Part shown: positions 26,636 through 39,950 of the stretch, in pieces
How positions within the stretch are numbered: the stretch's first letter is position 1
How the letters are laid out: each line of letters begins with the position of its first letter
Made by a program: the position numbers and the translations under genes
DNA from: Corallococcus sp. bb12-1
GTDB lineage: Bacteria > Myxococcota > Myxococcia > Myxococcales > Myxococcaceae
DNA length: 45,337 bases
Direction of reading: 5' to 3'
Assembly (NCBI RefSeq): GCF_026626765.1
Contig: NZ_JAPNJZ010000012.1
Span: 269,012-314,348 of the forward strand
Notes under the pieces: generated by a model
What the model was told of the DNA's origin: nothing
What the model saw: the letters and a program-made list of their open reading frames with translations, nothing else
The model's database searches: none

Positions 26636-27517
26636 ATGAAGGGAATCGTTCTGGCCGGCGGCTCGGGCACGCGCCTGTATCCGCTGACGCGCGTGGTGAG
26701 CAAGCAGCTGTTGCCCGTCTACGACAAGCCGATGATCTACTACCCGGTGACGACGCTGATGCTGGCGGGCATCCGGGAGATCCTCATCATCTCCACGCCG
26801 CAGGACCTGCCGCGCTTCCGCGAGCTCTTGGGCGACGGGGAGCAGTGGGGCGTGCGCTTCCAGTACGCCGAACAGCCGAAGCCGGAAGGGCTGGCGCAGG
26901 CCTTCGTCATCGGCCGCGACTTCGTGGGCAAGGACCCGGTGTCGCTCATCCTGGGCGACAACATCTTCTACGGCCACGGCATGGGAGAGCTCACGCAGCG
27001 GGCCTCGCGCCGCACGCACGGCGCGACGGTGTTCGGCTACTACGTGAAGGATCCGGAGCGCTACGGCGTGGTGGAGCTCAACGCGCAGCGCCAGGCGGTG
27101 AGCATCGAGGAGAAGCCGCTGAAGCCGAAGTCGCACTACGCCGTCACCGGGTTGTACTTCTACGACAACCAGGTGGTGGACATCGCCGCCAACCTCAAGC
27201 CCGGCCGGCGCGGTGAGTATGAAATCACCGACGTGAACGCGGAGTACCTGCGGCGCGGAGAGCTCAACGTGGAGCTGATGGGCCGCGGCTACGCGTGGCT
27301 GGACACCGGCACGCACGAATCGCTGATGCAGGCGTCCAACTACATCGAGATCATCGAGCGCCGGCAGGGCCTCAAGGTGGCGTGCCCGGAGGAGATTGCC
27401 TTCCGCATGGGCTACATCGACGACAAGCAGTTGGCGGCGCTGGCGGAGCCCATGCGCAAGAACGAATACGGTCAGTACCTGTTGGATCTCATCGAGAACC
27501 GGGGAGCGGTGTCGTGA
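26636..27517 (+). CDS. rmlA: Glucose-1-phosphate thymidylyltransferase.
   Basis: [18 protein letters not shown] (nucleotidyltransferase G-rich loop). [34 protein letters not shown]. Confidence 0.9.
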
Positions 27518-28059
27518 AGGTCACCCCCCTGGAGCTGCCCGAAGTCCTCCTGGTGGAGCCGAAGGTGTTCGGCGACGACCGGGGCTTCTTCCTCGAGTCG
27601 TACCACGCGAAGCGCTACGCGGACGCGGGCATCACGGGCCCCTTCGTGCAGGACAACCTGTCGCGCTCTTTGAAGGGCACCCTCCGGGGGCTGCATTTCC
27701 AGGAGCCGAACGTGCAAGGCAAGCTGGTGCAGTGCCTGTCCGGCGCGGTGTGGGACGTGGCGGTGGACGTGCGGCGCGGCTCGCCCACGTTCGGCCGCTG
27801 GGTGGCGGCGGAGCTGTCGTTCGAGAACAAGCGGCAGCTCTGGGTGCCCCCGGGCTTCGCGCACGGCTTCTGCGTGCTGAGCGACTCCGCGGACTTCTTC
27901 TACAAGTGCACCGCGCTGTACTCGCCGGAGACCGAGCGGAGCGTGCTCTGGAATGATCCCGACCTGGCCATCCCCTGGCCCGTGAGCGCGCCGCTGCTGT
28001 CGGGCAAGGATCAGCAGGCGCCCCGGCTGAAGGACGCCCCGGTCCTGCCCGCTTTCTGA
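27514..28059 (+). CDS. rmlC: dTDP-4-dehydrorhamnose 3,5-epimerase.
   Basis: GTG start overlapping the rmlA stop (GTGA). [15 protein letters not shown], and [12 protein letters not shown], which are cupin RmlC motifs. Confidence 0.85.
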
Positions 28060-28223
28060 CGTCTGGAGCAGGCAGCCAGGCATGAAGCAGGGGCTTGCCA
28101 TCCCGTCCTCCGTGCGCGGTAAGCAGGCAGGGAGGCAGGCGACTTCTACGAGGAGGAAGCCAGTCAGGGGATGGAATGCCCAATCTCTTCCGAGCAGTCG
28201 TGGCGCACCTCGGAGGAGACGGC

Positions 28224-29285
28224 ATGGTTTTGCCCGGCAAGGGAATGAGCTGGAAGGAGTTCTTCAAGTCCCTCAAGGCCGAGTGGGCGCGGGACAACGT
28301 GGGCAATGTGGCGGGGGCGCTGACGTTCCAGGGCATCCTCGCGCTGTTCCCGTTCCTGCTGTTCCTCGTGTCGCTTGCGGGCGTGTTGATTGATCCGCAT
28401 CAGGCGCAGCAGCTGGTCCAGGAGCTGTCGCGCGTGGCGCCGCAGGAGGTGACGAAGATCCTGGGTGAGCGCCTGGAGGCGCTGGCGAGCAGCAATCCGG
28501 TGGGGCTGCTGACCATCGGTGGCGTGGGCGCCATCTGGGCGGCGTCGGGCGGCATCGTGGCGCTGATGGAGGCGCTCAACACGGTGTACGGCGTGGAGGA
28601 GAAGCGCCCGTTCTGGAAGAAGCGGGGCATCGCGCTCCTGACGACGTTGGGCACGGCGGTGACGGCGGTGTTGGCGGCCCTCGTCGCGGTCGCCACGCCG
28701 GCGGTGGCGAGCAGGCTGGGCGAGCCGCTGAGCACCGTCATCATGTGGCTGCGCCTGCCGGTGGCGGGGCTCCTGATGATGTGCCTGTGGGCGTACCTGT
28801 ACTACGCGCTGCCGGACGTGAAGCAGAAGTTCAAGTTCATCACGCCGGGCTCGGTGGTGGGCGTTCTCATCTGGGTGGCCGCGTCGTGGGCGTTCTCCAT
28901 GTACGTGGCGAACTTCGGCTCGTACGACGTGAACTACGGCGCCATCGGCGGCGTCATCGTGCTGCTCTTGTGGATGTGGATCTCCTGCCAGGTCATCCTG
29001 CTGGGCGCGGAGATCAACGGCATCCTGGAGCACAAGTCGCCGGACGGTAAGTCGCCGGGTCAGCGCGATCCGGATCAGGCTGGGCCGAACGTGACGAAGA
29101 CGGAAGCGGAGGAGCAGGGCGCGGACCTGCCCGGCGCCACCGACTTCCGTCCCAAGCCGGTCGCGCCACCGTACACCACGGCGCCAGTGCCCCTGAGCAA
29201 GACGCCCCTGGCGTCCGCGGTGAAGGTGGCCGCGGGCGTGGGCCTGGGTGTGTTCCTGATGCGCCGCAAATCTCCGGCGCGGTAG
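28224..29285 (+). CDS. YihY/BrkB (ribonuclease BN-like) family inner-membrane protein.
   Basis: The FLxxxxRDNVGNxAGALTFQGILALFPFLLF start is typical of YihY. Six TM helices. Strong RBS GGAGGAG 5 nt upstream of the ATG at 28224. Confidence 0.75.
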   Translation: MVLPGKGMSWKEFFKSLKAEWARDNVGNVAGALTFQGILALFPFLLFLVSLAGVLIDPHQAQQLVQELSRVAPQEVTKILGERLEALASSNPVGLLTIGGVGAIWAASGGIVALMEALNTVYGVEEKRPFWKKRGIALLTTLGTAVTAVLAALVAVATPAVASRLGEPLSTVIMWLRLPVAGLLMMCLWAYLYYALPDVKQKFKFITPGSVVGVLIWVAASWAFSMYVANFGSYDVNYGAIGGVIVLLLWMWISCQVILLGAEINGILEHKSPDGKSPGQRDPDQAGPNVTKTEAEEQGADLPGATDFRPKPVAPPYTTAPVPLSKTPLASAVKVAAGVGLGVFLMRRKSPAR

Positions 29286-29312
29286 GGCCTGGGCACGGTG
29301 TGGGGCGACGGC

Positions 29313-29340
29313 GGGCGGTCTTCCTCGCGGAAGGCCGCCC
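29313..29340. terminator. Hairpin in the convergent gap (yihY-like gene / P460-like gene). Candidate terminator.
   Basis: gggcggtcttcc-tcgc-ggaaggccgccc (12-bp stem with one mismatch), followed by gtggccgttt on the plus strand. Confidence 0.3.
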
Positions 29341-29349
29341 GTGGCCGTT

Positions 29350-29838
29350 TCAGGGCAAGGGCGTGGTGACGTAGTCCTTCCCGTCCGAATGGCAGCCGTG
29401 GCAGGAGTCGTGGGCGCGGCCGTAGTAGTTGTTGTCGTACTTCGGGCCGAAGCCCTCGTAGAAGATCCAGGTGTCCTTGCCGGCGCCGTCGGTGATCTTC
29501 ACGTCCAGCGCGTGGCCCCGGAGCGTCTTGCCGTCGCTTTCGAACAGCTCCTTGACGAGGATGCTGCCCACCGGATGTGTGGCATTGCCGTCGCGCAGCG
29601 AACCCACGACGAGGTCGTTGAAGAAGACGCGGACCTTGCTCCCGTGGGGGGCGCGCGTTTCGTGGATGGTGGGCTCCGCGAGCCAGGACTTGTAGCGGCC
29701 GGAGCGCACGAAGTCGGTGATGCCCTGTTCGGAGGTGTCGAGTTCCTGGACGACGCCCAGGCCCTCGTCCACCGACGAGGAGGGACCACAGGCGCTGGCG
29801 AGTAGCAGGAGCGAGGTCAGCAGGAGGCGCGGGTGCAT
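29350..29838 (-). CDS. Cytochrome P460-like lipoprotein (mono-haem, C-terminal CXXCH).
   Basis: Lipobox signal peptide MHPRLLLTSLLLLASAC. 162 aa. A single haem c motif CHGCH near the C-terminus. Size and motif placement fit the cytochrome P460 / cytochrome c'-beta family. Confidence 0.5.
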   Translation of the reverse strand: MHPRLLLTSLLLLASACGPSSSVDEGLGVVQELDTSEQGITDFVRSGRYKSWLAEPTIHETRAPHGSKVRVFFNDLVVGSLRDGNATHPVGSILVKELFESDGKTLRGHALDVKITDGAGKDTWIFYEGFGPKYDNNYYGRAHDSCHGCHSDGKDYVTTPLP

Positions 29839-29883
29839 TCCCTGCGTTACGCCCGTGCGCCCGGTGTGGTTACTGGGGGCTGC

Positions 29884-30516
29884 TCAATGCTCTGAATAGG
29901 TGTGGGAGAGGACGAAGGTCAGCGAGCGCACCACCTCGGGGATGTCGATCTCGAACCAACCCCGATTCAAGTCCGCGGGGGTGACCTGGTAGTGGACGGT
30001 GCCGAACTCGTCGTCGAAGGAGAAGTCATCGACGTCGAAGATGGAGATCTCGATGGGGTTCTTGAGGAGGTTGGACGACACCACCTGGCAGCTTCCCGTG
30101 GACCAGCGAGGCTCCAGGCTCTGGACGGTTTCGGTGCGCGAGCGCTCAGCGGCGGAAGGGCAGCGCATCTCGACGACGACATCCGGCGGTGAGCCATCTG
30201 GATCCCACTCCGGATCCTCTTCGTCAAACGGGTCGTGGTCGAGGATGGAGGCGCGGATGGGCTGCACCCGGGTGCGCATCACGCCCACGATGCAGGCCTG
30301 CTGCTCCAGGTGACAGACCGAACCGCTGGTACAGCCCTCACATGCGGCGCCACCGTTCCTGGGGCCGCAGGCGTCATCGCCCTGGGGACGGATGCACTCG
30401 GCCTCCACGGTGCAGCACCCGTCCCGGCAATTGTCCGGAGTGCACTCCGAGGGACCGCAGGCGGGCAGCAGCAGCGCGCACGTCAGGGCGATGAGGAGGG
30501 AGGCGGGGCTTTTCAT
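29884..30516 (-). CDS. Cys-rich secreted lipoprotein, function unknown.
   Basis: Signal peptide with lipobox (LLLPAC). 13 Cys in the first 90 mature residues (CTPDNCRDGCCTVEAECI...CEGCTSGSVC), then an acidic region. Confidence 0.5.
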   Translation of the reverse strand: MKSPASLLIALTCALLLPACGPSECTPDNCRDGCCTVEAECIRPQGDDACGPRNGGAACEGCTSGSVCHLEQQACIVGVMRTRVQPIRASILDHDPFDEEDPEWDPDGSPPDVVVEMRCPSAAERSRTETVQSLEPRWSTGSCQVVSSNLLKNPIEISIFDVDDFSFDDEFGTVHYQVTPADLNRGWFEIDIPEVVRSLTFVLSHTYSEH

Positions 30517-30564
30517 GAGGGCAACGGTGAAACCTAGCAGACCCGGGGCAAAGGACTTCAAGCC

Positions 30565-31737
30565 ATGCCCCCTCAGGGCCGCATGAGGGCTCCCCATGGC
30601 GCGGTACAATCGAGGCTCATGGACGCCGCACTGACCGAGCGCTGGCTTACGCCTGACGGCCTCCGCCGACGTGAACGGCTGGTGGCATTGGGACTCCGTG
30701 GGCCATGGCGCGAGGTCCTCGTCGGGTTTCCGGGCGTGGGCGCGTTGGATCCCGCGGTGGGAGACCTGCGGGGCATCGACCTGACGCAGGAGGAGTTACC
30801 CGGCGCGGACCTCGTCCGGGCCCGCCTTGATGGTGCTCGGCTGGATGACTGCGGCCTCATCGAGGCCCGGCTCGACCTGGCCACGCTGTCGGAGGCGTCG
30901 CTCACCTGGGCGCGTATGGACCGCGCCAGCCTGCTCGGGTGTGTGGCCTTGGGAGCGAGTTGGGACGATGCCTCGTTGGAGGGGGCGGTTCTCACGGCTT
31001 CCAACCTGACCCGGGGTTCCTTCCGCCGCACGCGACTCCGGGGAGCGCTGTTGACCGCGACGACGCTGCTGAAAGCGGACCTGCGTTGCGCGGACCTCCG
31101 GGGCACGGAGATCTCCTGCTGCGACATGGAGGAGGCACGTGTCGCGGGCGTCCGCACGGACCGTCCCCGGACCTATGCGCGGGAGACCTGGAACCAGGCC
31201 ACGATTCGCGCCCTTCTGGGGAGCGGATATCCCTCATTCCTGGATGCCATCCTGTTGTGGCCCGGGCCGATGTCGTTTCGGGGGCTCACCCAGGGGGCGG
31301 AGGTGCTGCGGAACGTGGAGGCAGGAGTGGAGGCAAGTCCTGGGGTGGATGCGGAGATCCTCGCTCTGTTCCAGGATGAGCCGTATCCCTTGCATTGGGT
31401 GGGCGCGGTGGCGATGCTGATTGGGGGCGCACGCAAGGAGACCCTGGATGCGCTGTGGTCGAGGCTCGACAAGGGCCGCGTGGCGCATCCACAACTCGTG
31501 GTGGTCGCGCTTCTCGTGGATCCAGCCTTCGAAGCGAAGGCCCGCACCCGGCTCGATGCGCCGAGCCGATTGGGTCCCGAGGTGCTCGCCAACCTTGCGT
31601 GGGCGCTCTCGCAGCGGACCGGCCATGCGGTCAATCCGAGCGCCACGACGAGAACCTGTCAGCGCTGGTTCGACAGCCTCCGAAAACAGATGGACCCGCG
31701 CATCCAGGCGCAATGGATTCCTTTGGCGGGGCAGTGA
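30565..31737 (+). CDS. Pentapeptide-repeat protein with a C-terminal domain of unknown function.
   Basis: Tandem A(D/N)LxX-type repeats (ADLVRARLDGARLDDCGLIEARLDLATLSEASLTWARMDRASLLGC...ADLRCADLRGTEI). Confidence 0.65.
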   Translation: MPPQGRMRAPHGAVQSRLMDAALTERWLTPDGLRRRERLVALGLRGPWREVLVGFPGVGALDPAVGDLRGIDLTQEELPGADLVRARLDGARLDDCGLIEARLDLATLSEASLTWARMDRASLLGCVALGASWDDASLEGAVLTASNLTRGSFRRTRLRGALLTATTLLKADLRCADLRGTEISCCDMEEARVAGVRTDRPRTYARETWNQATIRALLGSGYPSFLDAILLWPGPMSFRGLTQGAEVLRNVEAGVEASPGVDAEILALFQDEPYPLHWVGAVAMLIGGARKETLDALWSRLDKGRVAHPQLVVVALLVDPAFEAKARTRLDAPSRLGPEVLANLAWALSQRTGHAVNPSATTRTCQRWFDSLRKQMDPRIQAQWIPLAGQ

Positions 31738-31738
31738 C

Positions 31739-32563
31739 TCACTTGCTCCAACGCAGCAGTTTCGCGCGAGCCGTGTCGGACAGCTGGGTCACCACGAACT
31801 GTTCGAGCAGCGAGGGATCCGGCTCCTTGCGCACGGGCTCCACCATGAAGTCCCACGTCTCGAAGTCGTCCGCCTCCTGGAAGAGGATCAACCCCACGCC
31901 CATGCGCTGCGCTTCCGACGTGAGCCGCGCGATGTCCGTGTCGTCTGGGTTCTCGGGCGTTTCGAACAGGGCGAAGGCATGCGTGGCCGTCCTGGCGTGC
32001 GCGGCGGCCTCGAAGACCCCGGTGATGTTGAACTGCCAGCTCGGCTTGATTTCGAAGGTCCAGATGTCGAAGGTGCGACCGGGCCAGTGGGTGAAGGTCC
32101 GCATGCTGATGGCGGTGATGTCGGGGCGGGTCCACACGCCCCCCGTCTTCTTTCCCCCCTGGTTCGCGGTGATCTCGATGTGGAAGTCGTGCAGCCCGCG
32201 CTCCTTCGTCCACTTCTCGTGCAGCACTTCCAGGCATGGGGCGTAGAGGTCAACCTCCGCTCCCTCCTCGGGCTCGGGAGGAAGCTCCACGAGGCTGCCG
32301 CTGAAGGCATTCGTGTCAGAGGGTTTGATCTCCTTGACGATGTTGACGCTGCCGCCGCGCCCCCGGCCTCGGAGGATCTGTCCATCCTCGATGAGCTTCT
32401 CGCGCAGCCGCCAGTACTCTGATTCAGACCAACCCAATTCATTCATCAGGCTGGTGTTGCCGGAAGAGCCCCCGTTCTTGATCAAGACCTCGAGGAACTT
32501 CCGGCGCTGGGAGTCATCAACGGGGCGTCCTGCCATGGGAAGGTCTCCTTGCTTGACAGCCAT
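31739..32563 (-). CDS. Hypothetical protein with an N-terminal winged-helix-like region and a PD-(D/E)xK-like nuclease motif.
   Basis: RRKFLEVLIKNGGSSGNTSLMNELGWSESEYWRLREKLIEDGQILRGRG (wHTH-like). Then HDFHIEI...RPDITAI...FEIKP (D...PD...ExK arrangement). The ATG overlaps the stop of the upstream gene by 1 nt (TGATG). Confidence 0.5.
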   Translation of the reverse strand: MAVKQGDLPMAGRPVDDSQRRKFLEVLIKNGGSSGNTSLMNELGWSESEYWRLREKLIEDGQILRGRGRGGSVNIVKEIKPSDTNAFSGSLVELPPEPEEGAEVDLYAPCLEVLHEKWTKERGLHDFHIEITANQGGKKTGGVWTRPDITAISMRTFTHWPGRTFDIWTFEIKPSWQFNITGVFEAAAHARTATHAFALFETPENPDDTDIARLTSEAQRMGVGLILFQEADDFETWDFMVEPVRKEPDPSLLEQFVVTQLSDTARAKLLRWSK

Positions 32564-34125
32564 CAAGCCACAGCCAGGATGGATTTGCTTCGCTCCTCCT
32601 CAAGGAGCGCCAACGTCTTGCGGTACTCCGCTGCTTCCGCGAGCTGGGTCAGCTCGAACTCCCCGTGGTGCTTGCGCACGGTCGCGGCGATCTCCTCCAG
32701 GCTGACGCGGAAGAACTCTTTGCGCTCGTTGATGCGATTGACGCGCCGGTCCGTGAAGGCGCGGTGCAGTGCGTTCTCCAGCGCGGGGGCATCCGAGGTC
32801 CGGATGATGGCATGCACGTCAAACTCGAAGGGGACGGAGGCATCCCCCAGCTCGTCGATGCGGTCCTGTGGCACCAGCCTTCGCGTCATCCCCAGCTTGT
32901 AGACGCCCTCTCCGAAGGAGCCGATGTTGGAGATGACGTAGACGTGCCCCGTCCGCGTGAGCTGTGCCTGGGAGATGGCCCGTTGCTTCTCCATGTCCTC
33001 GGCCACCCGACGTTCCAACTCCGCGATGCGCTCCAGCATCCGCTGCTGCTCGGGCCCCTTGGCCTTCTCGTAGTCCAGCCGGGCCCGGGCCAGGGCGTCC
33101 GCATCGCGCTTTGCTTCACGCTCCGCTTCCAGCTTCGCCTTCTCCAACTCCCGCTGGGCGGTCTCTTCCTCGCGCATCTGCTCCCGGATGCGGCGCTGCT
33201 CGTCCCGCTCCTGCTGCACCTTCTCCGAGTACTCGTACGCCAGGAGCAGCTCATCCCGCTTCAGCTTCACGTACTTGCGCACGATGATGCACTGCTGGAT
33301 CTCCGTCAGGCTGTTGATGGCCGCCGCCGCCTTCTCCAGGCGCGTCTCCATGGCCTTCACGTTCTTGTACGTCACCTTCGCGATACAGGCGTCCGCCTCG
33401 CCATTGAAGGCGCGCAGCATCAGCTTTAGCGTCCGCTCCGTCTGCTTCCTGCCTTCCGCCTTGCTGCCGTTGACCTCCCACTCCAACGAACACGTCGCTG
33501 CCTGCTTGTCCTTCAACATCTGTTTCTGGGCTTCGCGGAGCGTCTCCAGCCGGTCCTCGTACTCCTTCACCGAGGACAGGGCATACACGGGCTTGTAGAA
33601 GCCGAAGGAGAGCAGGACGGCCTCCTCCTCCAGCTCCTTCAGCTCCGTTTTCAATCGGCCGATGCCCGATTCCAGCCCCGTGCGCTCCGTGTTCGCCTGG
33701 AGCCGCCGCGCCTCCGCCTCCGACATGGCCCGTTTCGCGGCCTCCGTCGTCCGGGTGGCTTCGTCGCGAAGGCGTGTCAGCTCCGCCTTGGCCCGCGTCT
33801 GTTCCGCGGCGACGGCCTGCTCGACGTCCGCCTTCGCCTTCGCGAGCTGGGTCTCCACCCGCTTCTGCTCCGCCGCGAGAGTGGTGTCCGCCTCACTCCG
33901 GGCCCGGGCAAGCTCCTCCTGGACGCGCTTCTTCTCCGACGCCATGGCGGCGTCCGCATCCGTGCGCGAGCGGGTCAATTCCTCCGCGACGCGGCGTCGC
34001 TCGGCTTCCAGGTCCAGGATGGGTTTGAAGCGCTCCTGGACCACCCGGAGCTGAACCCGGGTCCGGAACCACAGTCCTACGAAGAGCAGGGCCAGCGCTC
34101 CAAGCCCGATGGCAATGATTGTCAT
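32563..34125 (-). CDS. Membrane-anchored coiled-coil protein with a DUF4041 domain and a C-terminal T5orf172 (GIY-YIG-like/MUG113) domain.
   Basis: N-terminal TM helix MTIIAIGLGALALLFVGLWF. ~170 aa of heptad-rich E/R/A repeats. C-terminal GHVYVISNIGSFGEGVYKLGMTRRLVPQDRIDELGDASVPFEFDVHAIIRTSDAPALENALHRAF...ERKEFFRVSLEEI, characteristic of T5orf172. Confidence 0.7.
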   Translation of the reverse strand: MTIIAIGLGALALLFVGLWFRTRVQLRVVQERFKPILDLEAERRRVAEELTRSRTDADAAMASEKKRVQEELARARSEADTTLAAEQKRVETQLAKAKADVEQAVAAEQTRAKAELTRLRDEATRTTEAAKRAMSEAEARRLQANTERTGLESGIGRLKTELKELEEEAVLLSFGFYKPVYALSSVKEYEDRLETLREAQKQMLKDKQAATCSLEWEVNGSKAEGRKQTERTLKLMLRAFNGEADACIAKVTYKNVKAMETRLEKAAAAINSLTEIQQCIIVRKYVKLKRDELLLAYEYSEKVQQERDEQRRIREQMREEETAQRELEKAKLEAEREAKRDADALARARLDYEKAKGPEQQRMLERIAELERRVAEDMEKQRAISQAQLTRTGHVYVISNIGSFGEGVYKLGMTRRLVPQDRIDELGDASVPFEFDVHAIIRTSDAPALENALHRAFTDRRVNRINERKEFFRVSLEEIAATVRKHHGEFELTQLAEAAEYRKTLALLEEERSKSILAVA

Positions 34126-34158
34126 GGATGTCCCCCCACCGAAGCGGGAAAGTCTAAC

Positions 34159-37100
34159 TCAGGCACTCAGCGAACGCATCTGGCCCTCGGCGGGAGGGTC
34201 GTTGCGGACCACCTTGGGCCGCTCCGCCGTGTCCTCTTCGCGGAGCAGTGTGTCGATGCGCGCGACGATGCGCGCGACCTCTTCCGCCGGCGAGCGGAAC
34301 CAATCCGTGGACCAGATGCGATGCAGCCGCCACCCCAGCCCCGTCAACACCTGGTCTCTCAGCCGGTCGCGATCCCGGGCGGAGCGTGAGCTGTGATAGC
34401 GCTCTCCGTCACACTCCACCCCCAGGATGTAACGGCCGGGATGGCGGGGATGCCGGATGGCCAGATCGATGAAGTAGCCCGCGACGCCCACCTGCGGCAC
34501 GACTTCGTACTGGTGCGCCGCGAGCGCCTTCGCCACCGCCACCTCGAAATCCGAATCCGGAGGGCGTCCGCTTCCGACGCCGTGGGCCACGAGCGCACCC
34601 TGGGCCTCGAACAGGTAGCGCTGCAGGACGCGCATCCCCCGGGGGCTGCTCTCCTGCACCTTGAGGTCTGATGGCTCAAACGACGCGAACACCGTCAGCG
34701 CGGACCGTGCCCGCGTGAAGAGCACGTTCAAGCGCCGGTACCCGTCCGCCTGGTTGATGGGGCCGAAGTTCTGCCGGAAACGGCCGTCCCGATCCTTGCC
34801 GAACGTCACGGAGACGAAGATGGCGTCGCGCTCGTCGCCCTGGACGTTCTCCAGGTTCTTCACATCGAAGGGATTGGGCGTTTTCGCCCAGGACGCCAGG
34901 AAGGCCGCGAGTCTGGCGTCCTTCTTCTCTTCCGCCAGCACCAGCGTATCGATGAGCTCCCGCTGCTTCGAGTTCAGCGTGACGACCAGCAGGCTCTGCT
35001 CGGGTCGGGTGTGCGCGTGCTGCCGCACCGCCTCCACCACCGCGCGGGCCTCGGGCTCGTTGCGGTTGGACTCATAGAGTCCGTTCTCCACCCGCACGAA
35101 GCGGACCCCCAATCCTTCCATGTGCTGTCCGGGCGCGGGAAAGACAATGAGGTCTCCGTTGTAGAACTCCCTGTTGCTGAAGGAGATGAGCGCCGGGTGC
35201 CGGGAGCGGTAGTGCCAGCGCAGCATGCGCATGGGGAATCGTCGCGCGGCGGCCACCAGGATGCTCTCCGACTCATCCAGGAGGGACGGACCTCTTGCCT
35301 CCTCCGGGTCCGTGACTTCTTCACCCGTGTCTTCGTCATCCCGTTCGAGCTGCGCGAAGAAGCTCGTGGGCGGAAGCTGCTCCGGGTCTCCCACCACCAC
35401 CAACTGACTGCCGCGTGCGATGGCGCCCAGCGCGTCTTCCGGACGGAGCTGGCTGGCCTCATCCATCACCACCAGGTCGAAACGCAGGTGCCCGGGCGGC
35501 AGGTATTGGGACACGGACTGCGGACCCATCATGAAACAGGGCATCAGCGCCTGAAGCGCGCTCCCCGCGCGTTGCACCAGCTCCCGGATGGAGACGTGTC
35601 GCTGCTTCTTGCCCAGCTCATGCTGGATGAGCTGAACCTCCGTCAGGCCCGCCACCTTCTGCGAGTGCACGCCCTGCGGCACCGGTCGGCGGCTGAGCTG
35701 ATGTGCCAGGTTCGGTCCCTGCTGCCCGATGAGCTGTGCATCCAGTCGCGCGAAGTCCTCACGCTGCGCGGCATGCACGGCGCCCGTGAACTGATCGAGC
35801 TCCGGCTGTTCCCTCAAGACGGACTCGGCCAGGGACCGGAAGAAGACGGCGTCGAAAGCCGCGAGCAGCTTCGTCGCCAGCGCCGGCCGGGCGTCGATCC
35901 GCTCCAGGAACGCGGTGGTGGAGCGCAGGCGCGTTACCGCGTGCCGGTGTCGCTGGTACGCGGCCCAGGCGGGGAGGGTGCTCGCGCGCTCCAGTGCCCG
36001 GTGCAACCGCCGCATCGTGGCCGTGAGCGGTGCCTCGGAGGCCGCGTCCTCCCAGGTTCCGGGCTCCATGCGTCCCAGCTCCTGCGCCCGTACCGTCGCG
36101 TCGCGGTAGTCCCGCAGTCGGGCTTCCACGTCGCGGCTTCGCGCCACCAGGCCTGCATGGCGACGTGCCGTGTCCTCCCGGAGCAGCCAGTCCGCGAAGC
36201 CTTCGGGAAGAGGGGCCGCGAGCACGTCATCCACGTAGCGCGCGAGCGCCCGGGGGCCGGCCGTGAGCGTCTTCCTTCCCTGGGACTCCGCGCCCAGCAA
36301 CGCGGACGCCACCGTGTGGTCCTTCAGTCGCTCCGCTGCCTCGCACGCTTCGCGCACGGTGCGCACCTGGGCCTGGAACTGGACCAGGGACAGTGAAGGC
36401 GGCGCAGCCGCCCGGCGAGCCTGGTCCAGGACCTCTCCCAGGTGGACGCGGAGCGCTCCCAGGCTGGATTTCACCTGGGACGCGGGGTTGGTGTTCCACG
36501 AACTCTTCCGCAGGTGCATGCGCGTGGCGGCTTCCTGCACCGCGTCGCTCACGTTCCGGGCCTGGAGGTGGGCATCCCCCTGGACCGAGGCCTTGGCGAT
36601 CGCCTCGCGCCAGCGGTTCGCGGGCAGCTCCAGGGCCATGCGCGCCAGGGGCTCGACGCTGGCGCCCATGGGACGCAGCAGCGCTTCCACCTTCCGCCAG
36701 ACCTCCACCCAGGCGAGGAGCCGATCAAAGCGCGTCGCGGTCCCCTGGAAGCGCTCGCCCAACAGCTCTCGCAAGGACGCGTCCGCATGGAAACGCTCAC
36801 GGGCGGCGTGATGCGCCAGCAGATCGTTGTACCCGAGGATCAGCAAGGGCCGTGTCGGCCGCAGACCATGGGCCATGGCCTGGAAGTCGCGCCGTGCAAA
36901 GCGCCACCCCCGCGACAGCCACGGGATGAACGGCGCGGTCGACACGGCGACGGCGTGCGCCTTCAGCGTCTCCAGGCAGGGGACGAGTTCGGGCATGAAG
37001 CGGACGGCGAGGGCTCGCGACTGTTCATCCAGGTCGTCGCGGGTGCGCGCCGCGCTTCGCAGCAGCTCCTCCGCCGCGGGCGTCACCCAGCACGCATCGC

Positions 37101-39342
37101 GCCACTCCAGGACGCCGTCGTCCAGCTCCGCCATCGCGTCCACGACCCGCGCGAGCGTCTGGATCATCACGGGCGACAAAGGCCCTTCGAGCCCCAACAC
37201 GGGAGCGAGTCCTTCCGCGAACGCCAGTCCCTGATCCACCGCCGCCAGCGCGTGCTCCACCGCGTCGCGTGCCCGCACCACGGTGAGCAGCGGAGTGTCC
37301 GGGGTGAAGAGCCGCAGGCTGGTGTCCAGCACCGCCTCCGCGCCCTTCAGGGCCTCCACGGTCAGGTCCTCGCGGGAACGCCAACCGGCCTCCAGCCCCG
37401 CCCACTGCCGTTGCATCAACTCGACGGCATCCAGGAACGAGCGCAGGGCTTCGCGGTTCGCTGCCTCCAGGAGGGCGCACTGAAGGCCAGGACGTGGTGG
37501 GGTCGGGGGCTCGGGCAGCAGTCGCACCGCGCTCACGAGGGCGTCCGCCGCGAGGGCGCTGTTCCGTAAGGCCGTTCCCGTGAGCGGGGCCAGCGCCGCC
37601 AGGGACTGCTCCAGGCCCAGCGCGGCTTCCTTCCATGCGGTGGTCCGCTCGATGAGCGCCTGGCAATCCCCAGCACTCAGGCTGGGATTCCTGATTCCGG
37701 ACCAGGGATGTTCGGAGGGCAGGGGCGCGACGCGGAGGATGTCCTTGAACTGAGCCGCGAGTCCCCGGAGCGCCTCGTGCACCTCCTCCAGGGTCGAGGG
37801 AGAAACGCTCGCGGCCGCCTCGATGCGCACGTCCTTGAGCGCCGCGATGTCATCTCCCAGCTCCGTTTCGGCCCGGCCCACCCTCCAGAAGATGTCGTGC
37901 GGCGTCAGCCCCAGGCCTCCCTGGACCGAATGCAGTCGTTCGGTGTGCGCGCGCAGGATGCCCATGGCATGCGTGACCTGGGCGCCCAGGGAGCCTGTCG
38001 CGACCGGCGTGGGCCGTTGTTTCAGCCGTCTGCGCAGGTCCTCCATGAACTGCTGCTTCTGGGTCTTGTGGCTGTGCAGCTCCAGGCAGAAGTCGCCCAG
38101 CCCTGCCTGCTGGAGCCGTCGGGAGACGACCTCCAGGGCGGCCATCTTCTGGGTGACGAACAGCACCGTCTTGCCCGCGGCCAGCGCCGCGCCAATGAGG
38201 TTGGTGATGGTCTGGGACTTCCCCGTGCCCGGTGGGCCCTGGACCACCAGACTTTCGCCCCGCAGCACGTCCACCAGCACGCTGTGCTGGCTGCTGTCCG
38301 CGTCCGTGATGAGCGGAGGGATTTCCGGCGCGAGTGCCGGTGAGTCCAGGTCATAGACATCGCTCCGGCGCTCCGCGATGGCTGGTAAACGCCCGCTCGC
38401 GGACTCCTTCTCCTGTCTGGCACCCAGCAGGGTTCGGACCTGGGGGCTGGCCAGCAGGGGGCTCGCTTCGGGCCATCGACCCGGCTCCAGGTCCCGCCAC
38501 ATGAGCAGCCGTCCAAAGGACAGCAACGTCAGGGTGACCTGCCGCTCCAGTTTCCACCCAGGACGCAAGTCCGCCAGGAGCGTGCTCACCTTCGCGAAGT
38601 ACGCCTCCAGCCCTTCGTCCGCATCGAAGGGGGGCAGGGTGATGCCGAACTCCTGCCGCAACTTCTCCTGGAGCGTGAGGTTGAGTTCGATGGACTCTCC
38701 CTCGTTGTAGTCCACCTCGTAGGCGTGGACCTGCGTCCTCGCATCGGGTGCGTTGCGCCGGAGGCTGACAGGCATCAGCACCAGGGGCGCGCTGCGCGGT
38801 TTCTCCCGCGCGACATCCCCGGGCTCGTACCAGCGCAGGAATCCGAAGACGAGGTGGAGCAGGTTCGCTCCCGTCTCCTGGATGGCGGTCTGCGCGAGTC
38901 CCTGCAATTGACGCAGCTGGGACTCCAGCTCCTCCGGAAAGTAGAGCGTCTGGACGTGGCGGTCCTGGTGCTTGCGCGGACCGGCCGCGCTGTCCGTCGA
39001 GGCCAGAGGCAGTTCGAAGCGGGTGTCGATGCCCAGCCGTTCGGCCTCCTGGGTCGCCAGCCGTTGCCGGGACACGGGGGGCGCGATGGTCTCCATCGTG
39101 AACACGCCGGGGCGGGGCTCCTTCGCGGGAGCTTCGCGTTCGGGCTCAGGCACTGGCAGGAACGTGAGCGCGCGATGGTTGCTCAGTCGCTCGAAGATGA
39201 CGCCGGGGAGTTCATCCACCAGCCGCAGCGATGTCCTCGCGGTGTGCCGGAAGTGGAGGAGCCGGTTGGATGCACTCAGGTCCAGGAGCCGCGTGCGCTG
39301 CCGTTCAAGCTCCTTCAGCAGGACCGGATCTTGCGGAGTCAT
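34159..39342 (-). CDS. Large (1727 aa) DUF4011/Upf1-like SF1 helicase fused to DUF3320 and a C-terminal DUF559 (Vsr-like) endonuclease domain. Hhe-like defence helicase-nuclease.
   Basis: N-terminal LLDLSASNRLLHF (DUF4011-type). Walker A GPPGTGKSQT, motif II DLVVMDEASQL, VVVGDPEQLPP, motif VI GYRRLNVLFTRAR. C-terminus YILGVECDGERYHSSRSARDRDRLRDQVLTGLGWRLHRIWSTDWF (DUF559/Vsr fold). Strong RBS GGGGAGGGG. Confidence 0.8.
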   Translation of the reverse strand: MTPQDPVLLKELERQRTRLLDLSASNRLLHFRHTARTSLRLVDELPGVIFERLSNHRALTFLPVPEPEREAPAKEPRPGVFTMETIAPPVSRQRLATQEAERLGIDTRFELPLASTDSAAGPRKHQDRHVQTLYFPEELESQLRQLQGLAQTAIQETGANLLHLVFGFLRWYEPGDVAREKPRSAPLVLMPVSLRRNAPDARTQVHAYEVDYNEGESIELNLTLQEKLRQEFGITLPPFDADEGLEAYFAKVSTLLADLRPGWKLERQVTLTLLSFGRLLMWRDLEPGRWPEASPLLASPQVRTLLGARQEKESASGRLPAIAERRSDVYDLDSPALAPEIPPLITDADSSQHSVLVDVLRGESLVVQGPPGTGKSQTITNLIGAALAAGKTVLFVTQKMAALEVVSRRLQQAGLGDFCLELHSHKTQKQQFMEDLRRRLKQRPTPVATGSLGAQVTHAMGILRAHTERLHSVQGGLGLTPHDIFWRVGRAETELGDDIAALKDVRIEAAASVSPSTLEEVHEALRGLAAQFKDILRVAPLPSEHPWSGIRNPSLSAGDCQALIERTTAWKEAALGLEQSLAALAPLTGTALRNSALAADALVSAVRLLPEPPTPPRPGLQCALLEAANREALRSFLDAVELMQRQWAGLEAGWRSREDLTVEALKGAEAVLDTSLRLFTPDTPLLTVVRARDAVEHALAAVDQGLAFAEGLAPVLGLEGPLSPVMIQTLARVVDAMAELDDGVLEWRDACWVTPAAEELLRSAARTRDDLDEQSRALAVRFMPELVPCLETLKAHAVAVSTAPFIPWLSRGWRFARRDFQAMAHGLRPTRPLLILGYNDLLAHHAARERFHADASLRELLGERFQGTATRFDRLLAWVEVWRKVEALLRPMGASVEPLARMALELPANRWREAIAKASVQGDAHLQARNVSDAVQEAATRMHLRKSSWNTNPASQVKSSLGALRVHLGEVLDQARRAAAPPSLSLVQFQAQVRTVREACEAAERLKDHTVASALLGAESQGRKTLTAGPRALARYVDDVLAAPLPEGFADWLLREDTARRHAGLVARSRDVEARLRDYRDATVRAQELGRMEPGTWEDAASEAPLTATMRRLHRALERASTLPAWAAYQRHRHAVTRLRSTTAFLERIDARPALATKLLAAFDAVFFRSLAESVLREQPELDQFTGAVHAAQREDFARLDAQLIGQQGPNLAHQLSRRPVPQGVHSQKVAGLTEVQLIQHELGKKQRHVSIRELVQRAGSALQALMPCFMMGPQSVSQYLPPGHLRFDLVVMDEASQLRPEDALGAIARGSQLVVVGDPEQLPPTSFFAQLERDDEDTGEEVTDPEEARGPSLLDESESILVAAARRFPMRMLRWHYRSRHPALISFSNREFYNGDLIVFPAPGQHMEGLGVRFVRVENGLYESNRNEPEARAVVEAVRQHAHTRPEQSLLVVTLNSKQRELIDTLVLAEEKKDARLAAFLASWAKTPNPFDVKNLENVQGDERDAIFVSVTFGKDRDGRFRQNFGPINQADGYRRLNVLFTRARSALTVFASFEPSDLKVQESSPRGMRVLQRYLFEAQGALVAHGVGSGRPPDSDFEVAVAKALAAHQYEVVPQVGVAGYFIDLAIRHPRHPGRYILGVECDGERYHSSRSARDRDRLRDQVLTGLGWRLHRIWSTDWFRSPAEEVARIVARIDTLLREEDTAERPKVVRNDPPAEGQMRSLSA

Positions 39343-39485: not shown

Positions 39486-39950
39486 TCAATCGCAGTTGTC
39501 GAACACCAGGATGCCTGGACCGTATGGGGTCAGCACGGGGACCCACGCCTCGGTGACTTCATCCAGGCGCTCCCGGTCCAGAGCCAGATGGAGCCTTTCG
39601 TCCGAGTTTTCATGAAGTTGTGTGCGCCACATCGGAACGCGGCTGACGAGTGCGGCCAGGTGCTCGAAACGCCAGGCACTCCAGTCCTCACGGACGTAGG
39701 GGTTGCCGCCGAACTCCTTCGCGAAGAAGGCGATGAGCGCCTTCTCCACGTCGAACAATTCGTCGACTTCGGGATCCGGGCTCGTATCGGTTGAATGAAG
39801 CAGCACGAGGAAGCCCTCCGCCGTTCGCTCACTGTTCCGGAGCCCGTCGCACTGGTGCCCATACACGACGCCCGTAGGGGCCTGAACGATGACGGCGAGT
39901 CCAAACGGCCGGCTGCCATCCGGGTTCAAGAAGACATAGTGGGGCGTCAT
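39486..39950 (-). CDS. Hypothetical protein (154 aa), first gene of the candidate defence cluster.
   Basis: ORF with RBS GAGGAGAGAG upstream of the ATG. Codon usage resembles that of its neighbours. No recognisable domain. Confidence 0.45.
   Translation of the reverse strand: MTPHYVFLNPDGSRPFGLAVIVQAPTGVVYGHQCDGLRNSERTAEGFLVLLHSTDTSPDPEVDELFDVEKALIAFFAKEFGGNPYVREDWSAWRFEHLAALVSRVPMWRTQLHENSDERLHLALDRERLDEVTEAWVPVLTPYGPGILVFDNCD

Follow-up and report, generated by a model that had tools for sequence, protein, structure and literature searches.

A 45,337-nucleotide stretch of the Corallococcus sp. bb12-1 genome (contig NZ_JAPNJZ010000012.1, positions 269,012 to 314,348; hereafter the window) encodes on its minus strand a complete 520-residue protein (32563..34125, ATG start) that, from its sequence, is clearly a member of SNIPE/PD-λ-1, a known and named defense family, and not a new system. 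The gene was delimited and identified through the list of open reading frames (ORFs), PADLOC, and BLASTP. The family prototype, Escherichia coli PD-λ-1, was reported by Vassallo et al. 2022 (PMC9519451) and has since received a detailed characterization under the new name SNIPE (Saxton et al., Nature 2026, PMC13190303). It is an inner-membrane nuclease that cuts phage DNA during injection (PMC13190303). Since every sequence feature needed by the SNIPE mechanism is kept in the window protein, we assign it the same mechanism by homology and consider this assignment highly probable.

Identity and architecture of the Corallococcus SNIPE homolog

The ORF is a real gene, with a codon signature (GC content at third codon positions, GC3, of 0.88 and at second positions, GC2, of 0.41) like that of genuine genes in the window. 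ORFs antisense to it, such as 33188..33598 on the plus strand (GC3 0.93), were rejected as shadow frames, their first-position value (GC1) of 0.34 being atypical of coding sequence here. The 520-residue product is a 100% match to a Corallococcus sp. bb12-1 protein labeled "DUF4041 domain-containing protein," and 7,407 database proteins match it at E ≤ 1e-10. An N-terminal transmembrane (TM) helix is followed in the protein by a helical stalk, the DUF4041 domain, long linker helices, and a C-terminal T5orf172/GIY-YIG domain. An AlphaFold2 model built with 60 homologs as input (mean predicted local distance difference test score, pLDDT, of 80) places in order a helix at residues 2-30, a second helix at 50-173, an α/β domain at 186-281, helices at 283-354 and 358-389, and a β-β-α-β-α unit at 393-487. 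The original prediction, made from the DNA alone, had called this topology unusual for a nuclease-like domain; the layout from TM helix to GIY-YIG domain instead characterizes a widespread, already named family.

The PD-Lambda-1 model of PADLOC matches residues 91-514 of the window protein over profile positions 52-478 of 496 (E = 5.5e-150). For comparison with the prototype we used the E. coli copy in record CP061260.1 (locus L001, 3602..5104), which serves as a reference because it scores 1.9e-198 on the same model and bears all nine residues named by Saxton et al. (L253, E264, K305, E223, T319, W257, I308, N250, and E414). BLASTP aligns the two proteins at 49% identity over residues 167-515 (354 columns, E = 4e-111) and finds no sequence similarity to E. 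coli SNIPE in the first 166 residues of the window protein. A similar core beside a dissimilar N terminus is the pattern published for the family, in which the nuclease is conserved most, DUF4041 less, and the N-terminal region hardly at all, with N-terminal lengths that vary strongly (PMC13190303). Both proteins have 1-4 residues ahead of a single N-terminal TM helix, then a helical stalk, DUF4041, a long α-helix, and a C-terminal GIY-YIG domain, and both are single-gene units. They differ in that the window stalk is ~40 residues longer and is built of 22-residue repeats that are not obvious in E. coli SNIPE. All the features by which SNIPE/PD-λ-1 membership can be judged in silico are thus present: the near full-length match, the N-terminal anchor, DUF4041, a GIY-YIG domain with its catalytic Glu, and, from genomic evidence, occurrence as a single gene.

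The two genes also differ in their setting. The window gene is chromosomal and lies in a Corallococcus defense island beside an Hhe gene, whereas the E. coli reference copy is flanked by lambdoid prophage genes: to one side ren and the genes for replication protein P and a further replication protein (O), to the other ybcN and rusA. The record that holds it (pSTEC1018_2) was deposited as a 280-kb plasmid, and SNIPE there is phage-borne cargo.

Other systems resemble the window protein less. Zorya and Kiwa likewise work at the membrane, at the stage of genome injection or close to it (PMC13190303), but they are multiprotein systems of unrelated components, and PADLOC gives no sequence link to either, its matches to the window protein being PD-Lambda-1 and PDC-S57 only. 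PDC-S57 (E = 2.4e-19, residues 391-496) and generic T5orf172/MUG113 proteins have the nuclease domain alone in common with it; the PDC-S57 match excludes the TM helix, the stalk, and DUF4041, the parts that define SNIPE. T5orf172 and MUG113 are also domains of phage proteins and of proteins labeled only as DNA-binding, and the family is, at 7,407 matches, very widespread. The gene might on these grounds encode no defense protein at all but a DNA-binding or homing-endonuclease-like GIY-YIG protein of the T5orf172 type from a mobile element, or a housekeeping membrane-associated DNA-processing factor. We hold this to be extremely unlikely: the near full-length match is to a validated defense protein and not to a nuclease domain only, the distribution is patchy, as is typical of defense genes, and the gene belongs to an island that varies between strains, bracketed by conserved ABC-F and BrkB genes, where it lies beside Hhe, with a SIR2 gene in a sister strain.

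No NCBIfam model matches either the SNIPE homolog or the nuclease protein encoded downstream of it. When the family alignment was used as a profile to search PDB sequences, only nonsignificant matches of coiled-coil type (ribosomal S1, C/EBP) came back, and a solved structural relative of the SNIPE homolog is not detectable by sequence.

Predicted membrane anchor

The predicted TM helix spans residues 2-20 (TIIAIGLGALALLFVGLWF; 34066..34122, minus strand) and is indicated by hydropathy, AlphaFold2, and conservation. Kyte-Doolittle means over 19 residues exceed 1.6 at window starts 1-4 only, with the maximum of 2.36 at residues 2-20, and an equivalent N-terminal hydrophobic helix is found in 112 of the 120 closest homologs; at least some of the other eight are fragments. 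The single N-terminal TM helix that had been proposed is in this way borne out by the one hydropathy maximum, the modeled helix, and the homologs. There are no charges before the helix, and R21, R23, and R27 follow directly after it, an arrangement that fits an N-out/C-in topology under the positive-inside rule. In the published survey, 59% of SNIPE homologs have one TM helix within the first ~70 residues and 7% have two; the prototype has a TM helix as well (PMC13190303).

A stalk built of 22-residue repeats

Residues 50-173 form a membrane-proximal stalk helix of ~125 residues in the AlphaFold2 model (33607..33978, minus strand). Residues 21-173 are composed of 18% Ala, 16% Glu, and 14% Arg, and BLOSUM autocorrelation over residues 35-166 gives z scores of 6.7 at a lag of 22, 5.4 at a lag of 44, and 3.3 at a lag of 7. 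The core of the stalk consists of four 22-residue repeats (residues 50-137; 33715..33978, minus strand), identified by this autocorrelation and by their register: LTRSRTDADAAMASEKKRVQEE, LARARSEADTTLAAEQKRVETQ, LAKAKADVEQAVAAEQTRAKAE, and LTRLRDEATRTTEAAKRAMSEA. The original prediction had described ~170 residues of heptad-like, E/R/A-rich repeats; the E/R/A-rich helical region is there, but the units are of 22 residues and hendecad type, with a hydrophobic period of 3.64 residues rather than the 3.5 of heptads. The b stalk of the F-ATPase (ATP synthase) is a hendecad-type coiled coil, which would fit this period.

The repeat is common to the Corallococcus, Myxococcus, and Archangium-type homologs, and across them the conserved core begins at residue 124, 135, 146, 175, or 186. 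In the MAFFT alignment, two homologs (P0040 and P0017) differ by exactly 22 residues, with more unit-sized gaps elsewhere, so that repeat copy number, as read from aligned sequences, appears to vary among Myxococcaceae SNIPE homologs. Tandem Repeats Finder detects no 66-nt array in the DNA, and the repeats are seen at the protein level only; the units are thus old and diverged rather than products of recent slippage.

Among the published HHblits classes of TM-containing homologs, the dominant ones are UPF0242 (116), ATP synthase subunit b (66), and FtsB (32; Supplementary Table 3, PMC13190303), and homologs with such N termini resemble the window protein in having a long helical stalk after the TM helix (PMC13190303). 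Assignment of the window protein to any one of these classes is not demonstrated by hmmscan: against Pfam, its N-terminal 176 residues return only nonsignificant coiled-coil noise, the best match being DUF4407 (E = 0.0094, below the cutoff of that model), and place the stalk in no named family such as ATP-synt_B or FtsB. The text of PMC13190303 does not describe a 22-residue repeat or variation in its copy number. The repeat-built, length-variable stalk is the only feature here that goes beyond the published picture of SNIPE, and it is a lineage-specific elaboration of a region known to vary, not a new architecture.

One might imagine that an array with strain-variable copy number acts as a ruler or evolvable spacer that fixes the distance of DUF4041 and the nuclease from the inner membrane and so tunes which phage injection machines are intercepted. 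We put this forward as a doubtful idea. A weaker alternative still is that the Hhe-SNIPE pair of Corallococcus cooperates, SNIPE nicking the DNA at entry and Hhe processing the ends.

DUF4041, linker, and nuclease domain

A Pfam scan had been suggested for DUF4041 and T5orf172, and both were matched (E = 1.4e-19 and 1.5e-17, respectively). The DUF4041 model, PF13250, which newer Pfam labels on database proteins already name "SNIPE," aligns to residues 234-289 with 70.2 bits against a cutoff of 27; the α/β domain seen by AlphaFold2 is larger, covering residues 186-281 (33283..33570, minus strand), with pLDDT values of about 90-97 across the region. By homology this would be the domain that binds DNA and the tape measure protein, and 14 Lys/Arg positions within residues 186-282 are common to the window DUF4041 and E. 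coli SNIPE. The long E/R-rich linker helices that follow in the model (residues 283-354 and 358-389; 32959..33279, minus strand) align with the helix of E. coli SNIPE termed the "downstream α-helix."

The nuclease domain, defined by Pfam, AlphaFold2, and conservation, spans residues 393-487 (32665..32949, minus strand). T5orf172 is matched at residues 393-485 and MUG113 with E = 7.5e-18; the Pfam GIY-YIG model itself is not matched by the window protein, whereas these two sister families are. AlphaFold2 gives a GIY-YIG-like βββ/α core with strands at 393-399, 408-414, and 436-443 and helices at 419-429 and 446-456. The nuclease motifs are GHVYVIS (Y396), VYKLG (Y409, which is Tyr or Phe in homologs), R416/R422, E450, and N463/N466. 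E450 (codon 32776..32778, minus strand) aligns with the catalytic E414 of E. coli SNIPE and is invariant in 60 of 60 aligned homologs, as are Y396, K410, G412, R415, R416, R422, N463, and N466. The FEFDVH motif, singled out earlier as part of the nuclease domain, is indeed conserved among homologs, but the catalytic Glu lies elsewhere, in APALENALH. The βββ/α core, tyrosines, Arg, catalytic Glu, and Asn that mark the GIY-YIG superfamily are all found in the window protein. In a Foldseek search of the PDB with the full-length model, the best matches are to the GIY-YIG nuclease Slx1 (probability 0.96, E = 0.14), the remainder being long helical proteins, so that the Slx1 matches alone carry meaning; the E value is weak because the query was the full-length elongated model.

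Proposed mechanism

By homology to E. coli SNIPE, the N-terminal TM helix would anchor the protein in the inner membrane with one or two residues outside and the remainder in the cytoplasm, and the 22-residue-repeat stalk would hold DUF4041 and the GIY-YIG nuclease near the inner membrane face and away from the chromosome. During genome injection by a long-tailed phage, DUF4041 would engage both the tape-measure-protein complex and the incoming DNA, and the GIY-YIG domain, with E450 as its catalytic residue, would cut that DNA before infection is established, so that the cell would survive. The analysis here shows the architecture, the family assignment, that catalytic and basic residues are conserved, and that the gene is independent of its neighbors; membrane localization, topology, cleavage during injection, recognition of the tape measure protein, and the direct outcome would carry over from what was found for the E. 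coli protein.

In E. coli, SNIPE is uniformly localized to the membrane, with the N terminus periplasmic and the remainder cytoplasmic according to PhoA-LacZα fusions (PMC13190303). Its DUF4041 domain promotes DNA binding, it associates with ManYZ and with the tape measure protein of λ, and phage Bas14 escapes through mutations in its own tape measure protein (PMC13190303). Radiolabeled phage DNA is cleaved during injection in SNIPE cells, E414A abolishes both defense and toxicity, and SNIPE protects alone from a plasmid (PMC13190303). The original prediction of a membrane-tethered, nuclease-like protein that acts on an envelope-proximal event describes this characterized homolog well.

The same prediction had raised the possibility of an abortive-infection type, in which the anchor would sense envelope damage or injection and free or switch on the nuclease, which would attack the host chromosome, and the infected cell would die. 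Action of the nuclease on self DNA is in principle conceivable, as E. coli SNIPE from which the TM helix has been removed becomes nucleoid-associated and highly toxic through double-strand breaks in host DNA (PMC13190303), and the apparent auto-inhibition of the membrane-bound protein towards host DNA (PMC13190303) implies an activation step. The defense provided by E. coli SNIPE is nevertheless direct: infected cells survive and reach confluence at high multiplicity of infection, unlike those with the abortive-infection system PD-λ-3 (PMC13190303), and phage DNA is cut as it is injected. The window sequence has no protease site or release module that would hint at another mode, and architecture and catalytic residues are conserved between the two proteins. 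We therefore find abortive infection unsupported and regard it as very unlikely for the window protein.

Several points weigh against a simple transfer of the E. coli mechanism. All experiments concern E. coli SNIPE, and the window protein and its myxobacterial homologs would be assigned their function by homology. The N-terminal 166 residues are unlike those of the prototype, and the E. coli host partner ManYZ cannot be assumed here. Residues of the proposed tape-measure-binding face differ as well, with N250, L253, and W257 of E. coli replaced at the aligned positions by K287, R290, and L294, a divergence in keeping with the published idea of a face that changes along with phage range. The TM helix is a prediction from in silico hydropathy, modeling, and conservation, and the modeled fold matches GIY-YIG structures only weakly in statistical terms (E = 0.14). 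Finally, Hhe reads into SNIPE in three loci across gaps of just 33, 20, and 13 nt, and there may be co-transcription and some functional interplay.

Genomic neighborhood

The Hhe-type antiphage helicase-nuclease (34159..39342, minus strand, 1727 residues, identified by Pfam and PADLOC) is encoded upstream of the SNIPE homolog on the same strand, across a 33-nt gap. It combines DUF4011, a superfamily 1 helicase (AAA_11/AAA_12), and an MTES_1575 restriction endonuclease domain. PADLOC matches it to Hhe (4.6e-282) and to PDC-S37 (E = 0), and it scores 1396.8 bits on the NCBIfam model Hhe_antiphage, below the 2000-bit cutoff of that model.

Downstream lies a gene for a winged helix-turn-helix (wHTH) and PD-(D/E)xK nuclease of 264-265 residues that belongs to an unnamed family (31739..32533, minus strand, delimited by start-site evidence and homologs). 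Its description as PD-(D/E)xK-like had been correct: the C-terminal domain is of this type, with E93, D138, E161, K163, and E175 invariant in homologs. The N-terminal part is a Zα-like winged helix that ends in a conserved GRGRGGSV motif, and some family members carry an additional N-terminal XRE-type HTH. The family is small, with 108 database hits and no Pfam, NCBIfam, or PADLOC model. The overlap reported between the SNIPE stop and the start of this gene holds for the longest ORF only (TTG at 32566 or ATG at 32563), in which the two form TGATG. The NCBI annotation of 265 residues corresponds to a start at M11 (window position 32533), homologs align from M11, and this codon is preceded, at a distance of 8 nt, by an AAGGAG. 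On these sequence signals M11 is most likely the real start, which would leave a gap of ~29 nt to the SNIPE homolog and no overlap of stop and start.

Three genes on one strand with gaps of 33 and ~29 nt, and with no terminator-like site seen between them, raise the question of whether SNIPE works obligately with Hhe, the downstream nuclease, or both as one operon-encoded machine. The order ABC-F-Hhe-SNIPE recurs in Corallococcus-type loci, and the Hhe-SNIPE pair is found in three further such loci (L002, L003, and L011), with gaps of 13-20 nt in L002 and L003. The short gaps point to co-transcription of a pair that is rare outside Corallococcus. Co-occurrence was examined by tblastn over 80 species-representative SNIPE loci, L002 and L003 having been fetched separately. 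A close Hhe stands beside SNIPE in one of the 80 (L011), with a further match of 40% identity on the opposite strand in L013 and a weak one (27%) in L028, and the 265-residue nuclease gene is found in none of them. The SNIPE of Myxococcus xanthus, 65% identical to the window protein, stands alone at a different locus with neither neighbor, E. coli SNIPE defends alone, and Hhe itself is annotated as a stand-alone antiphage protein. The 265-residue nuclease family is solitary in Myxococcus fulvus, Archangium, Paracoccus, and Tritonibacter, and its slot after SNIPE holds a SIR2_2 gene in Corallococcus coralloides and a 264-residue nuclease in one metagenomic contig, which suggests that the site downstream of SNIPE is a hotspot of cargo exchange. 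An obligate multigene system is, against this background, quite unlikely. From gene content, Hhe and the downstream nuclease instead appear to be co-residents of a defense island rather than obligate partners of SNIPE, the nuclease gene being variable cargo. A partnership of SNIPE with the nuclease through the TGATG overlap was ruled out by the start-site evidence and the lack of co-occurrence.

The SIR2_2 protein of C. coralloides (CP034669.1; L003, 10607..12337) has 576 residues and is encoded directly downstream of SNIPE, replacing the wHTH-PD-(D/E)xK gene. The nuclease family occurs on its own in unrelated contexts, within a ribosomal-protein cluster in Tritonibacter, for example, and the protein may be an independent mobile or defense nuclease. 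A sigma-70 promoter scan of the region found none and a terminator scan gave background-level scores, with no terminator between the three genes, results that are uninformative for a 68% GC myxobacterium; the operon structure of Hhe, SNIPE, and the nuclease is inferred from spacing alone.

The SNIPE gene marks a strain-variable defense island, flanked by ABC-F/TGT/UvrC genes on one side and by BrkB and dTDP-sugar genes on the other. The GC content of the window is ~70%; it is 0.63-0.68 at 27000..35000, compared with 0.70-0.75 in most of the window, and reaches its minimum (0.631) at 32001-33000, where the 3′ portion of SNIPE and the nuclease gene are located. Such a dip across the island fits horizontal acquisition. 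Between the ABC-F gene and Hhe lies a gene for a 154-residue DUF6210 protein (39486..39950, minus strand, Pfam 4.1e-18); the matching intergenic gap in L002 and L003 is only ~180 nt, so the gene looks like a strain-specific insertion at the island edge. A 390-residue pentapeptide-repeat protein (30565..31737, plus strand, 4.9e-18) is encoded convergently with the nuclease gene, and a 241-residue C2-domain protein (29884..30609, minus strand, 9.4e-7) lies in the variable segment that separates SNIPE from the conserved BrkB gene; neither has a PADLOC match.

Implications

On these data, the annotation of the window gene as "DUF4041 domain-containing protein" can be replaced by SNIPE/PD-λ-1. If the spacer idea were true, stalk length would help to set phage specificity, and the repeat stalk offers a possible handle on how the variable N-terminal region does so. 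The SNIPE strategy, in which self and nonself DNA are told apart by place of entry and not by sequence or modification, is also found, in well-conserved form, in predatory soil myxobacteria, whose copies appear from their sequences to have kept both the catalytic center and the membrane anchor intact.

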